Assembly: GCA_964016885.1 (NCBI GenBank) | Contig: OZ024743.1 | Coordinates: 199,454,001 to 199,518,000, forward strand | Reading direction: 5' to 3' | Length of the DNA stretch: 64,000 bases | From: Eledone cirrhosa | Lineage: Eukaryota | Shown: positions 41,541-58,299 of the stretch, one piece after another | Numbering within the stretch: position 1 is the first letter of the stretch | Layout of the letters: the number at the start of each line of letters is the position of its first letter | The notes under the pieces: generated by a model | What the model was told of the DNA's origin: nothing | Seen by the model: the letters and a program-made list of their open reading frames with translations, nothing else | The model's database searches: none | Translations under genes and position numbers: made by a program

Positions 41541-42030
41541 TACAGAAACATCATCTACAAATGAGCTAGTGGCCTCCCAATGGGTTCACGACTCAGCAGG
41601 ACCCTGAACCCTTGCAAACCTAACAATGGATACCATAGAAAGAAGAGTACTATCCTCTAGATGACACATCATGTTCTACAGAAGGTACATAGATGACATA
41701 CTAGTACTGCCCCATTCCACCAGAGGTAAGGAAAAAAAATATATGAAACATTCAATGCAATGCCCGACATAATCGAGTTTGACATCAAACATTCAACAGC
41801 TAATTGTTCCTTAAGCCAGCTCGACATCCTCTCCCTCACTTCCAGAAAGGCCACCATCAGCTTCTACAAGAAGGAAGCAAAGAGTGATATCTTCTTCCAC
41901 ACAGACTTCACATACTCACAAACTCTAAAATAATAACCAGAAATAAGCTCATGTGTCATGTAGACAAATGCAATGAAGCCACCCTAGCAGAATATGTGGT
42001 AACCTTCTACTCCAAACTGTTGTTGGGAAG
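41541..42030 (+). pseudogene. Decayed Penelope-like reverse transcriptase
   Basis: IYK*ASGLPMGSRLS...LANLTMDTIE...FYRRYIDDILVL...SLSQLDI...FYKKEAKSDIFFH, with stops and frameshifts. Confidence 0.8.
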
Positions 42031-42489
42031 AAGCTGACAGCATGAGGTTTTCATGGTTTCTATATTTTTAAGGTCAATACAAATAGCTCCAGTGCACATG
42101 GGACAGTTATAAAATTACACAAGTTAGGATAATTAGTCTTTCGACTATTTACAAATAAATGAAATGTGTTGCAACTGAAAAGAAGAGATAGAAACAAAGT
42201 CTAACATATTAGCAAAGATGAGACACTATGAAAAAATGGCGACGAAAAAAAAATTGTTTGTTTGGACATAAGTCCTATATAGACAGACACAACATGGATA
42301 ACAAAAAAGAAAGATAGTAAAGAATTAAGAATGCAGAAGAGGATCTTATTATTATAATTATTATTACATTTATATATAAATATATATTCCAAGATTTGGC
42401 AACATGAATGGACCTGTTATTTTTATCTAAAGACATTTTTTCCAATTCCAGCCCTCCTGTCCCTTCAATCTTTCTAATTTCTCATTCTT

Positions 42490-42614
42490 TCTTCTGATAA
42501 AAGACAAGCGTCTGAAACGTTAAGACCCTCTTCCTGCTATAACAAGCGTTAACCCAATATATTCCTTCCATATACTGTACCGATTGTGTTGTTATTTCTG
42601 TTTACCTTTTACAT
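42490..42614 (+). mobile_element. PLE pseudo-LTR with degenerate minimal HHR (42490-42525)
   Basis: tctt CTGATAA a agac aagc gtct GAAA cg TT aaga; downstream 90 bp repeated at 45714-45803. Confidence 0.6.
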
Positions 42615-42693: not shown

Positions 42694-43207
42694 GGGAGAG
42701 AGAGAGAGAGAGAGACTGTAATATTGAGACTGAGCAGACCACTAATCATGGGAGTACACAATGCATGGGGAGATGCAGAGTTGACGTGTGTATGTATATA
42801 TATATATATATATACGTATTTATATATATATATTATATTATATATATATATATATATTATATTCGTTTTTTCCTGTTCTTAGCCAGCGAACGTTTCCACG
42901 AACCAAAGTATCGTCTTCCTGTCTTCCTCCGGTTGCAACGTTTTTTGAAATATCCACTTCTGCGTTTAGAGATTGACTTTGTTAGTTTCAGCAGATCCCG
43001 TTAAGGGTGAAAGCAGCGATTCTTTGCTTAAACTTTAATCTGTTATTTTAATAAATATATATATATATATATATATATACTTAGGGTAAACATTGATGCA
43101 ATTCAATTCAAGCACTCAACGTACTTTTTCCACATAGGAGTGATGGAGTAAATATCGAATAAGAAAAAGCGAAGTAGTTTCAGATGTTCAAGTCTTTTAA
43201 TAATAAT

Positions 43208-43281
43208 GCTGTGATATATATTTCAATGACGACACTGGCCACACTGTTCTTTGTGTGAGTGTCGCGACATCTTCAGACAGC
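43208..43281 (-). ncRNA. Type-I hammerhead ribozyme (core CUGAAGA)
   Basis: gctgt CTGAAGA [long stem II cgacact/agtgtcg] GAAA tatata TC acagc. Confidence 0.7.
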
Positions 43282-43893
43282 TTGTTACATAATAAGGTTA
43301 TGTTTCCGAGGCAATCCAAATTGAATCGACATGGGAACAGACGAAGTGTGTGCTTTTGGATTCTTCATCCGTTCCCCTGTGAGTACCTCCACCGGTCTGC
43401 GCAGGCGCATGTCCGAAGGAAGTTGACCATTAGCTACCGCAGATTTCAACGAAATTCGCTTAGTAAGTTCCCCCCTCTCAGCCAAACAATGACCCATTCA
43501 GGCCTGTACCTTAGTTTACTGCTACCCATCCCGTCTGTGGCAGTCAGCCGAAAGTCAGAGGGGGTGGGAGAGTGTTAGTATTTACAGGTCACAATACTAT
43601 CTCTCATCAAGCATGGGCAGTACAACTGACCATCAACCCCTAAGAGAAAATATACTTAATTCTAGGTATCATGGTTTTACATTGGAAGTTATGAGTGAGA
43701 GTTAGAAATAAAAATAAAAATTTAAAATCGAAAATCCTAAATCAAATATCAGAAATTATAAATTAAAAAATTAAAAAATTAAAAAATTAATTAGAAATTA
43801 AAAAATTTTTCAAGTGGGAATCTGGATTGAGGTGAGTATCCCATGTCGATTCAATTTGGATTGCCTCGGAAACATAACCTTATTATGTAACAA

Positions 43894-43967
43894 GCTGTCT
43901 GACGATGTCGCGACACTCGCACACAGAACAGTGTGGCCAGTGTCGTCATTGAAATATATATCACAGC
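43894..43967 (+). ncRNA. Type-I hammerhead ribozyme (core CUGACGA)
   Basis: gctgt CTGACGA ... GAAA tatata TC acagc. Confidence 0.7.
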
Positions 43968-43970
43968 ATT

Positions 43971-44290
43971 TTCTACTTTTGGCACAAGGCCAGCAAATAT
44001 CCAGTGCATTACTGGTACTTTATTTTATCGACCCCGTAAGGATGAAAGGCAAAGTCAACCTCGGCGGGATTTGAACTCAGATCGTAAAGGGACGTAAGTA
44101 TGCTGGAAAGCATGGCGTCTGGTAGAGGGTCAGACGCCATGCTTTCCAGCATACTTATGTCCCTTTACAATCTGAGTTCAAATCCCGCCGAGGTTGACTT
44201 TGCCTTTCATCCTTACGAGGTCGATAAAATAAAGTACCAGTAATGCACTGGGTAATTGCTGGCCTTGTGCCTAAAGTAGAAACAATTATT
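43971..44290. mobile_element. Head-to-head fold-back dimer of SINE family A
   Basis: Minus copy 43971-44121 and plus copy to 44290 joined by a 9-nt loop gtagagggt. Confidence 0.9.
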
Positions 44291-45524
44291 ATTAAAGACT
44301 TGAACATCTGAAACTACTTCGCTTTTCCTTATTCGATATTTACTCCGTCACTCCTATGTGGAAAAAGTACGTTGAGTGCTTGAATTGAATTGCATCAATA
44401 TTTACCCTAAGAATTTAGCTCCAATTAGTTGAGCGCTCTATGATGTAACCGATATGGTGGAGAAGAGAGGAACCAACCACGAGCTACCCCTGGAAATTCC
44501 CTCTACCATGGGGATGGAAACCCCTGACACTGGATGGACATAATAGTAACTTTCTGCAGGATAAATACGCGGAAACAAAAACTAAGATACACCCATATTT
44601 TCCTGCACCAAATCGCATTTGAACAGAAGCCCCCTCAATTCAATCTATACATGGACAAATTGACAATCATATGGATCATTTTGCATATATGTACTCTGTG
44701 ATTTTGCATTTATTCATTATTGGTTCTTTTCTTTTGTGTACTTTATATCTGTTTTTTTTTGCTTTTGTTCCATGTGATGGAAATTATGACTGTGTACCAG
44801 ATTGAATATTGCCTTTAATACTGTAATTTACCCTCCGTTCTAATGTACAGCACTATCGTTCACTATGTGGCTAGTGTAGATGAGACATTAGGACCCCTTT
44901 CAGAACTTCTTACTTAAACATCTCTCTGCATATTATTTACTCACTTCAATCTATGTGTTTTTTTACTCACCTCAATCCAGATTCTCACTTGAAAATTTTT
45001 TTAATTTCTAATTGTTAATTTTTTAATTTTTTAATTTTTTAATTTATAATTTTTGATATTTGATTTAGGATTTTCCATTTTAAATTTTTATTTTTATTTC
45101 CAACTCTCACTCATAACTTCCAATGTAAAACCATGATACCTAGAATTAAGTATATTTTCTCTTAGGGGTTGATGGTCAGTTGTACTGTCCATGCTTGGTG
45201 ACAGATAGTATTGTGACCTGTAAATACTAACACTCTCCCATCCCCTCTGACTTTCGGCTGACTGCCACAGATGGGATGAGTAGCAGTAAAAAAAAGGTAC
45301 AGGCCTGAATGGGTCATTGTTTGGCTGAGAGGGGGGAACTTACTAAGCGAATTTCGTTGAAATCTGCGGTAGCTAATGGTCAACTTCCTTCGGACATGCG
45401 CCTGCGCAGACCGGTGGAGGTACTCACAGGGGAACGGATGAAGAACCCAAAAGCACACACTTCGTCCATTCCCATGTCGATTCAATTTGGATTGCCTCGG
45501 AAGCACAAGCTTATTATGTAACAA

Positions 45525-45598
45525 GCTGTCTAACGATGTCGCGACACTGGCGCACGGAACAGTGTGGCCAGTGTCATCATTGAAATATATATCACAGC
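45525..45598 (+). ncRNA. Hammerhead copy with core mutation (CUAACGA), probably inactive
   Basis: Same fold as 43894-43967 but conserved G5 is A. Confidence 0.6.
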
Positions 45599-45645
45599 AT
45601 TATTATTAAAAGACTTGAACATCTGAAACTACTTCGCTTTTCCTT

Positions 45646-45714
<69 letters not shown>

Positions 45715-45798
45715 CCCTCTTCCTGCTATATCAAGCGTTAACCAAATATATACCTTCCATATACTGTACTGATTGTGTTGTTATTTCTGTTTACCTTT

Positions 45799-45834
<36 letters not shown>

Positions 45835-55289: not shown

Positions 55290-57600
55290 ACCCAGTCAAT
55301 TAAAAACACTTTTAAACATATATGGGACCATATTTACATTTTAGATTTTTTTAAATTTGATGTGGTAAATCTCTATACTACGGTCAGACATCAATATGCA
55401 CTAGATGTAATAGTATTCTGGCACAAAGAATTCCCTAATGAAATTCCGGGCATAAAAAAGTTTCATTACCAAAAGATTAACATTTTTCTTCTTTTTACCC
55501 ACTTATTCCTGTGTGGGTTGTTAAGGCAGTGTCCTCCAATACGGCTTTCAGTGGATCCTGTCACGAACAACCATCTCCAATTGATCTAACTGGATACCCA
55601 AGTGAGACAAACCGAGCTTATAGATGTTAACCAAATATCTTGCTCGGGGTCTACTATCGTTTCGCTCGTAAAATCTGTCCAGCAATCTTTTCCTGTTACA
55701 TTCTAACCACATGCCCGTCGTATCGGAGCTGTGATCTATCACTTCGGAGGTGTACCGGCTCTACCTGGACCCTTCGTAGAAACCCCATATCGGCCGCCTG
55801 TATTCATAGTCGTATTCTTTCGGTCATTACCCAAGTTTGATGACATAGTTATGGGTTGGCACGAATACCGAATTGAAAATAGCGAAGTTGGCTTTTACAC
55901 CTACTTCCCTTCTTCAGAAGAAGGAATGCTGAAGCTGGCACATTACTGCACCAGCTCCTGCAATTATTGCACTTAATTCAGCCTCTTGCCTTCCAACGCT
56001 CATGAACACAGTCCCGGGATACTTGAACTTCTTCACCTGCTTCACTGGAACTCCAGTCATATGTAGACTGCACTGCGAAGTCTTTGCAGCATTGATTTAC
56101 ATTCTAGCCATGCAGTACTCAGCAACAAATCTATCAAGTATATGTCGGAGATCATCTTCTGACGAGTTAAGTAATACCATGTCGTTTGCAAATTCCAGCC
56201 CACTGATCCTACACCCACCAGTCGTGATTTCACTTCCAACCCGGTTGCTCGTATCAATCCTGTTTGTGAATTAAATTCATTCTACACAATGTTTTTGTTT
56301 TACTTTAATGGCAGCATTTACAAAGATATATCTGCGACCGTGATGGGTACGAACGAAGCTCCGACTTATGACATTCTAATCATGATAGACACGAAGTTCC
56401 AAACATACGAACACTCTATATTAAAATACGGCTTAAATTTCCATAAATATTTGCTAGAAAACCGAGATCGTTACTTCCATGCCTACCTGATTCTGTGAAC
56501 GCACACTGTTGAACAGCTCAATGAATTCAAGATTCTAATTAACAACATAAACAATAATATTAACTTCATAATGACATACGGTATAGTCAGGATCAACTCC
56601 AATTCTTGGACATTTTAATCTCAAAAAATCACAAACATTGAAACTAACATCCACTAACATCCCAACGGACTCTAAACAATATTTGCTATTCATCTCAAGC
56701 CATCCAAGACGAACGAAGACGAATATTTCGTTTAATATAGTAAGAAGTGTCTGCATAATTATTTCAAATTATGAAATTCGGAATAAAAACTCAAGGAATA
56801 AAAACAAACATTATCCATAAAGGTTAATAACGGAACAGAACGTGCTAAAGCAATAGATATCCTAGAACTGCGAAAATAAAACATAAACAATACTTCAAAT
56901 ACACTCAATTGATGGTCAGTTTTGTTTTTGCTCGCCCAACGTTTTTTCTCTCTTTTATGCATTATAAAACGACATTATATTTGTAATGTTCTTCTGAACG
57001 AATTGCGAACAATTTATAATGTTCTTTACACATTTGTAAAGTTATTTATACAACTGTGAATAAAATTTACGTTCTCAATAAATACCTTACACTTCATCAC
57101 AACACATAACACAAGAAATACAAAGGCATACATTATCCTCTAAAGGCATTCATATGAATGAAAACTGCAGGTGAAAAAGAACAAACAACCAAAATCCCTT
57201 TAAAAACAAATACACACCAGTGCCAACACAAACCCAACAGCAACAGTCAAAACATGCGGTCACTTTAATTGCAGGTCTAGCATTGATACATCGTATACAT
57301 TTAAATCAGGACAAATTTTTATTGTAAAAATTAATTTCATCTGTTCGACAAAGAATGTAATATATGCGGTTAGGTGTAAAAGATGTAACGTAGACTACAT
57401 AGGACAAACAAAACTCATCATCAAAAACAGAATGACTCTTCATCGTCAACATATAACGAAACATTAGTGCTAGACATATTCCACTTTGTAGATATCTAGG
57501 TTTATGTGCGACAAATAATCTCTTAAGTTTCACGTCTTCCCATTTTGTTTTTGTTCAGAATATACTAGAGTTTAAGCACTGGTACAGAAAGAACATAAAT
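55290..57600 (+). pseudogene. Decayed Penelope-like element ORF (RT plus GIY-YIG), interrupted by an RTE
   Basis: FDVVNLYTTVRHQYALDVIVFW; FYFNGSIYKDISATVMGTNEAPTY; PTDSKQYLLFISSHPRRTKTNISFN; NFICSTKNVIYAVRCKRCNVDYIGQT. Confidence 0.85.
55485..56270 (-). mobile_element. 5'-truncated RTE-clade LINE (RT C-terminal half to 3' tail)
   Basis: LEFANDMVLLNSSEDDLRHILDRF...INAAKT...VKKFKYPGTVF...RPRARYLVNI; AAG-rich tail. Confidence 0.85.
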
Positions 57601-58299
57601 TTATACAAAAATAAACTTTAGCAAGGTACATTCACTTCTAATTCATATGACATGTTGAAGTTACATTATTTCTTGGGGGCAATGCAAGGACGTAACAAAG
57701 AACTAACAAAATTCTATGCCTAATCACGTGATCATCTTTGACCAAATTGCATCCTACACAGATAGCAATTCAGTCATGTTCTCTCCATGAAAAACAAGAG
57801 AATTTTCGAACTTCCGTCAGAGGGAGATAGTTATGTCAATGCCCAATGTAATAAACTTTTGAAAATACTCAAAAACCTGGAAACCTGTAAGGTATGTTGT
57901 TGTAAATATATCTTCCTCAAAACTTCAAGAGTATTCTCAAATTCTTGTCTTTATATTTCTAAACGTGTGAAATAAAAATGAATACATTCTTTCCTATAAA
58001 TTGAATTAGAGGATTTCGCCGTATATTTGACTAAGTAACATAGTTTGATAATGGGGCTTCTACGCTATGTTATCAGACTATTTTAAAATACAGTGAAATC
58101 TTTTAATACAATTTGCAAATCACGATAGCTGTTTTCTAAACATGTCTCTCTCTCTCTCAAAATTGAATTAGAATATTTCGTCGTATCTTTGATTAAATAT
58201 AACAGGGTATTTAAGACCACTGAACGGGGGAAAAAAAGATGCGGATGCCAATCTTGTTTTCCGCTTATACGCTCCGTTATTATTCTAAGACCACCGTCG

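Follow-up and report, generated by a model that had tools for sequence, protein, structure and literature searches.

How does a repeat that carries no recognisable protein gene come to lie in the genome as an inverted arm joined to a partial tandem, with a hammerhead ribozyme motif in each of its terminal repeats? This question is raised by an element of about 2.6 kb in Eledone cirrhosa. It lies within a stretch of 64,000 nucleotides of contig OZ024743.1 (assembly GCA_964016885.1), referred to below as the window, to which all coordinates apply.

Layout of the locus

An earlier note on this DNA, made from the letters, had described an inverted arm followed by pLTR-unit-pLTR, and self-BLAST of the window bore this arrangement out. 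Positions 43149-43838 match the reverse complement of 44964-45657 over 694 nt at 95.1% identity, the last 8 nt of the match being TA repeat. The left arm extends past this match as far as 43080, and the extension aligns with 44285-44417 at 95.5%, which brings the length of the inverted arm to 759 nt. Direct repeats were found between 43839-43970 and 45470-45601 (93.9%), and between 44285-44342 and 45599-45657. A (TA)n adjoins both outer ends of the element exactly, at 43080 and 45649. In the sense of the hammerhead, the unit reads P (the pLTR), X and Y, and the window holds Y P in reverse followed by P X Y P; the unit measures 1297 nt in one natural copy, in keeping with the 1.3 kb first described. 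The left arm carries a 77-nt tail and the right arm carries none. Both parts of the layout that had been called a hallmark of PLE insertions, namely the partial tandem of the pLTR and the inverted 5'-truncated copy, are present. The parts of the element are as follows.

43080..43838, minus strand: inverted arm (Y and full pLTR), 5'-truncated at 43838, with its far (site B) end against (TA)n
43080..43156, minus strand: 77-nt tail between sites A and B, on this arm only
43208..43281, minus strand: type I minimal hammerhead motif, core CUGAAGA, every core position intact
43839..44411, plus strand: inner pLTR, 5'-truncated, broken by a SINE pair and reading past site B into X
43894..43967, plus strand: hammerhead motif, core CUGACGA, intact, predicted cut after 43962
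43971..44284, no strand assigned: head-to-head pair of a presumed SINE, foreign to the unit, at the ATTATT run 3' of the hammerhead
44412..44963, plus strand: X segment of the 1.3-kb non-coding unit, with 1042 first-look candidates in the genome
44964..45469, plus strand: Y segment, with a 14-bp hairpin directly upstream of the hammerhead region
45470..45649, plus strand: outer pLTR, with its near (site A) end against (TA)n and no tail
45525..45598, plus strand: hammerhead motif, core CUAACGA (G5 lost), likely an inactive catalytic core

The arrangement is known from the assembly alone; an assembly artefact is unlikely, given the 95% likeness of the arms and the presence of this layout at dozens of further loci. 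The outer pLTR of this copy carries three variants of another subfamily, which are absent from the left and inner pLTRs. The splice-donor-like 7-mer GTGAGTA occurs three times in the X and Y segments, on the strand opposite the hammerhead.

The 314-nt inner hairpin at 43971-44284 does not belong to the unit. It consists of two head-to-head copies of a short, unrelated repeat that occurs many more times in the window, and the pair lies as an insertion in the middle pLTR. We take this repeat to be a tRNA-like SINE in view of its A/B-box-like motifs and variable target duplications; ARAGORN detected no tRNA in it. The same repeat lies at the ATTATT run of P in many family copies, its 5' ends and duplications varying from copy to copy; with about 20 matches in 80 loci, the SINE has entered this run directly 3' of the hammerhead many times over, in separate events. 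In being paired head to head, the SINE of the window resembles the larger element around it.

Two further features were noted around the element. A 110-bp direct repeat at 42525 and 45714 was considered as a target duplication and rejected, being another dispersed repeat; the latter (42441-42612 and 45714-45801) has a (TA)n end, a decayed hammerhead-like core and 18 local matches, and is probably a different PLE-type end. Degraded PLE reverse-transcriptase fragments lie elsewhere in the window, at 41568-41900 and 55314-57611.

The 1.3-kb family and its hammerhead

The window element is one copy of a young, high-copy family and shows the usual PLE pattern rather than a one-off arrangement. The proposed genome-wide search with the X segment yielded 1042 first-look candidates in this 3.0-Gb genome, the best 40 of them matching at 92-100%. 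Exact 22-mers of the two end types described below occur 883 times (A) and 344 times (B) genome-wide, with 0 for the reversed controls. A relaxed hammerhead pattern gave 2162 matches against 1 in the control, and about 92 of the first 100 listed were assigned to the family by eye. The head-to-tail closure pLTR-X-Y-pLTR was observed at many loci, in short arrays. In an alignment of 25 units, divergence from the majority sequence is 1.4-3.5% for most and 9-13% for four; the window copy, at 4.7%, is probably a decaying passenger in an ordinary and probably inert locus.

The lack of a recognisable RT or endonuclease, claimed for the unit from the start, held up. No conserved ORF was found, the 70-codon frame of the window being broken in the majority sequence of the 25 copies, and nine frames gave no Pfam family over the cut-off. 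Six PLE proteins of this genome compared with seven family loci scored at chance level, low-complexity flanks excepted, and likeness of the family to PLE peptide motifs reached E values of 0.06 or worse (best 0.06-0.1). An ORF with RT and GIY-YIG, by which an autonomous PLE is recognised, was not found in the family, which is therefore not an autonomous PLE.

The three hammerhead motifs described at the outset are likewise present, with cores CTGAAGA (minus strand, 43276), CTGACGA (plus strand, 43899) and CTAACGA (plus strand, 45530). Each core is followed by 45 nt, GAAA, TATATATC and ACAGC, the last of which pairs with the GCTGT preceding the core. Each P accordingly carries GCUGU - CUGANGA - 45 nt - GAAA UAUAUA UC - ACAGC, which forms a type I motif whose helix III is palindromic. 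A descriptor of the type I minimal hammerhead gave one match per strand within the window element, and 1 in 3000 mononucleotide shuffles of a 1365-nt unit. Rfam returned no hammerhead match at E<=10, only hairpin and microsatellite noise.

Conservation of the motif was assessed in 83 ungapped copies from the sample taken along one contig (C1). The core is intact in 77 of them. Of 913 calls at core positions, 8 are changed, whereas the figure for the remaining non-marker positions is 131 of 5561 (p=0.003). Older relatives at 69-82% retain the core and helix I. Position 7 is free, with U in 51 and C in 30 of the copies; three functional core alleles were rejected, CUGAAGA and CUGACGA differing at this free position only. 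CUAACGA, whose loss of G5 presumably leaves the catalytic core inactive, was found in 0 of the 83 copies and at 4 loci among matches picked with that copy as query, and is probably decay.

Within helix II, one pair switches from A-U (45) to G-C (28) among the 83 copies, and another is broken to C.C in 27. The more unusual part is the helix II base, which is U.U in 81 of the 83 copies (symmetric register), followed by two pairs and a C.C mismatch; the G10.1-C11.1 closing pair was not found. In related families, helix I shows covariation. At the same helix II places, two unrelated families have G.U, two pairs and C.C, as read by eye, and the U before GAAA also occurs in other hammerhead families of this genome. 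Unrelated hammerhead families at L245, L246 and L247 (around position 4450) show a palindromic helix III, U before GAAA, the fourth-step C.C and a covarying helix I. A coding Neptune-like family (L096, L097, L100, L105, L107) has a minimal hammerhead with U.U at the helix II base. A 2017 paper reportedly deals with dimeric PLE hammerhead variants, and the variant with U.U and C.C may be described there.

The minimal PLE hammerheads of PMC4209133 are similar in having a 5-bp helix I, a long helix II (7-8 bp reported), a small palindromic helix III and opposite-strand motif pairs 100-700 bp apart. The motif of the 1.3-kb family differs in its 45-nt helix II domain, U.U base and fourth-position C.C, whereas the motifs described there have an extra base and the highly conserved G10.1-C11.1 pair.

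End sites and the proposed course of insertion

Family copies stop either at site A (…CUUAUUC) or 77 nt further on at site B (…CCCUAAG), and then pass into TA/TC repeats; the window element ends at B on its left arm and at A on its right. The pairing of ends was tallied by eye in 80 loci taken in order along C1, 40 anchored at B and 40 further loci anchored at A, the latter set leaving out loci of the B set or fetched earlier. The tally was 54 A+B, 1 B+B and 0 A+A, i.e., 54 of 55 scorable two-armed insertions, with P of about 2e-15 if the ends were independent at 0.5. In 2 of the 54, the arms measure just 10-20 nt and were read from the flank. In the remaining loci, the partner arm ends elsewhere (3), leaves the stretch (1) or gave no scored second arm (21). 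The arms of the sole B+B case belong to two subfamilies and are 13% apart, and it therefore probably represents two events. The anchored ends run into TA/TC repeats at 80 of 80 loci, a figure partly built into the search patterns, and the partner ends do likewise.

The same rule was observed in coding PLEs, of which this genome holds many. In a Poseidon-like family with frames of 900-905 aa, whose copies end in (TA)n, the two end sites are separated by about 43 nt. All 18 divergent pairs taken from pattern lists are A+B, and so are 8 of 8 further pairs, a ninth being unscorable. The Neptune-like family likewise has two end sites, and one two-armed locus of it is also A+B. The names Poseidon-like and Neptune-like are provisional, being given by a linker motif (PMC8557442) and not by a tree. 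At L200, L206 and L207, which are near-identical duplicates, a B end of the 1.3-kb family lies in the TA run after a Poseidon-like A end. A published count of a one-A-one-B rule was not found in the literature searched: PMC8557442 and PMC3846280 describe the one-sided tail of EN+ PLE insertions as occurring "often" or "optionally", whereas it is near-strict in the 1.3-kb family.

The earlier note had expected read-through RNA both to self-cleave and to form dsRNA. The second part stands as a predicted duplex of about 690 bp. Self-cleavage is doubtful: in the predicted fold that duplex takes up 67 of the 73 nt of the left motif and as many of the right, which leaves the middle motif alone free; such motifs reportedly depend on a dimer partner and show weak cleavage (PMC4209133), and the right motif has lost G5. 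Nor is the dsRNA-forming layout special: since about two thirds of the sampled insertions are two-armed, it is a by-product of insertion. The proposed check for editing revealed neither an A>G or T>C excess nor an ADAR-type bias in the window arms and the family sequences.

We consider it likely that the locus records the insertion of a protein-free 1.3-kb hammerhead repeat mobilised by a PLE, in which both cut strands of a (TA)n target primed one RNA at two fixed sites, in one event. The proposed course would be as follows: 1) a PLE RT-endonuclease would bind, in trans, a multimeric sense RNA with head-to-tail units and no cut in the pLTR being copied, 2) priming from one DNA end would begin at site A and from its partner at site B, probably via an asymmetric dimer, 3) the two cDNAs would stop independently, or both would run off a common RNA 5' end, and 4) they would be joined head to head by short microhomology. 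The hammerhead would be kept by selection in source copies, probably processing multimeric transcripts as a dimer, and would play no visible part in end formation.

The biochemical counterpart is Poseidon_Ac (PMC11167929). In vitro, its purified PLE protein nicks each of the two DNA strands and extends it, and a dimer was predicted; the target is AT-rich and the RNA template uncut, and reverse transcription starts at two internal RNA sites, downstream of the hammerhead, that delimit the tail. This system differs in being coding; the study reported no strand difference in the use of the two sites, and counted start sites without pairing them within a molecule or insertion.

Most arms of the 1.3-kb family read through the motif, which means that the template was uncut or re-joined there. 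Formation of the ends at the ribozyme cut site was rejected: about 135 inner ends show no pile-up, with 1 within 2 nt of the cut, and 9 lie 5-12 nt downstream of the predicted cut, at the ATT run. These data bear on the idea of a circular-RNA retrozyme, compatible with two start sites, in which hammerheads release and circularise a 1.3-kb monomer that is then copied round; we regard it as possible, though unlikely. Circles are made by small animal retrozymes (PMC7229834), and a circular template would suit the conserved hammerhead core, the head-to-tail units that close without an ORF and the arms that exceed one unit (7 of 104). A tandem source read through into a linear transcript gives, however, the same arrays, the tandem pLTRs of the window differ at subfamily markers, the cut site shows no cluster of inner ends, and 8 of 9 predicted retrozyme dimers were uncleaved in vitro (bioRxiv 10.64898/2026.07.22.740005).

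Whether the two arms come from one RNA was approached through subfamily markers and inner ends. Marker calls agree between arms in 1031 of 1163 cases (89%), against 54% in shuffles (maximum 73%). The inner ends coincide within 4 nt at 8 of 56 junctions, against 1.0 expected, and without the ATT site at 4, against 0.6 expected (p=0.002); most junctions show 1-4 nt of overlap or a few extra bases. Both arms stop at nearly one unit position at L121, L137, L142, L149, L163, L164, L170 and L191, and the ATT run, found at four of the eight coincident-end loci, may be prone to endonuclease cutting or to deletion. Two RNAs, one for each subunit of an asymmetric dimer, would explain A+B equally well from the geometry of the protein, each arm being copied from its own transcript. 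Marker sharing could then reflect one dominant source at a time, and the outer pLTR of the window is unlike the other two. Coincident inner ends, on the other hand, arise more easily from one shared RNA 5' end, and mixed arms are rare despite several subfamilies of similar age; we thus find two templates improbable. The reading with one RNA nevertheless faces two points: shared markers are also expected from two RNAs of one then-active source, and the mixed pLTRs of the window need a mixed source array or later conversion.

Resolution or self-priming has been proposed in PMC8557442 and PMC3846280. Accordingly, a single priming could be followed by a fold-back, self-primed inverted arm, with trimming of one end during resolution by the endonuclease giving the tail, and perfect palindromic junctions do occur. 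This copy would have to lie within the first cDNA, yet either arm can be the longer: the A arm exceeds the B arm minus its tail in 28 of 52 insertions, the window included, which contradicts a simple fold-back. The tail cannot be copied from a cDNA begun at A, and both sites map as RT starts in vitro (PMC11167929). Fold-back is therefore very unlikely. As for signals at the two sites themselves, a duplicated signal before A and B was not above shuffles (726 of 2000), and a bulged hairpin predicted 10 nt before B was without compensatory change.

That the copies are truncated remnants which show simply the long UTR or pLTR of a coding PLE is scarcely credible: most copies are 5'-truncated, coding PLEs abound and the weak peptide likeness given above exists, yet pLTR-X-Y-pLTR closes on itself at many loci, PLE protein matches lie near 11 of 144 fetched loci (some overlapping one another) with 0 overlapping the element, the 2 exact site-B matches that continue with C or G do not run into an ORF, and alignment of the pLTR with five coding families is not above shuffles. 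The autonomous partner sharing the pLTR, for which the earlier note had proposed a search, was found neither among those five families nor at 8 distant hammerhead loci, where no linked ORF was detected (top candidates scored in both searches). The case for mobilisation of the 1.3-kb family by a PLE is therefore made by its insertion footprint.

Relation to known elements and meaning

PLEs are the closest relatives of telomerase. EN+ PLE insertions (PMC8557442, PMC3846280) resemble those of the 1.3-kb family in the partial tandem of the pLTR, adjacent inverted copy, one-end tail, (TA)n target and hammerhead in the pLTR. The 1.3-kb family differs in having no RT-endonuclease ORF and in its tail of 77 nt, against a usual 30-40 nt (PMC8557442). 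Non-autonomous Chlamys elements, e.g., MRC1 (PMC8557442), are likewise PLE derivatives that lack an ORF, have pLTRs and form head-to-tail copies; the 3' end of these elements resembles that of an autonomous family, unlike in the case of the 1.3-kb family, for which no such partner was found.

Animal non-LTR retrozymes (PMC7229834, bioRxiv 10.64898/2026.07.22.740005) share the non-coding unit, the single type I hammerhead and the head-to-tail copies, and co-occur with PLEs. They differ in size, at about 300 bp (51-972 bp) against 1297 nt, and the description of the element as a non-autonomous PLE-type derivative larger than typical animal retrozymes is supported by this comparison. In addition, the 1.3-kb family occurs mostly as dispersed two-armed insertions instead of long arrays, and has a minimal rather than canonical hammerhead and candidate circles. 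The survey in the bioRxiv report searched repeat periods up to 1000 bp, and a unit of 1297 nt could therefore not have been found by it. Apart from size, the family fits the non-autonomous PLE / retrozyme class, its circles being putative.

The formation of tandem and inverted PLE insertions is named as unsolved in PMC8557442. A wider reading, on which we are evenly divided, is that two primers are obligatory in every Penelope-type insertion: an asymmetric RT-endonuclease dimer would hold one RNA, with one subunit starting at site A and its partner at site B, and would yield the inverted arm and the one-sided tail as one product. The 1.3-kb family would then be a compact ORF-less substrate, larger than the reported animal retrozymes, with a helix II variant (U.U or G.U base, fourth-step C.C) common to several unrelated families. 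Retrozyme surveys limited to 1 kb miss larger units such as this one. The near-strict pairing of one A end with one B end, in a non-coding and in a coding family, predicts that complementary start sites would be used on each target molecule in vitro.
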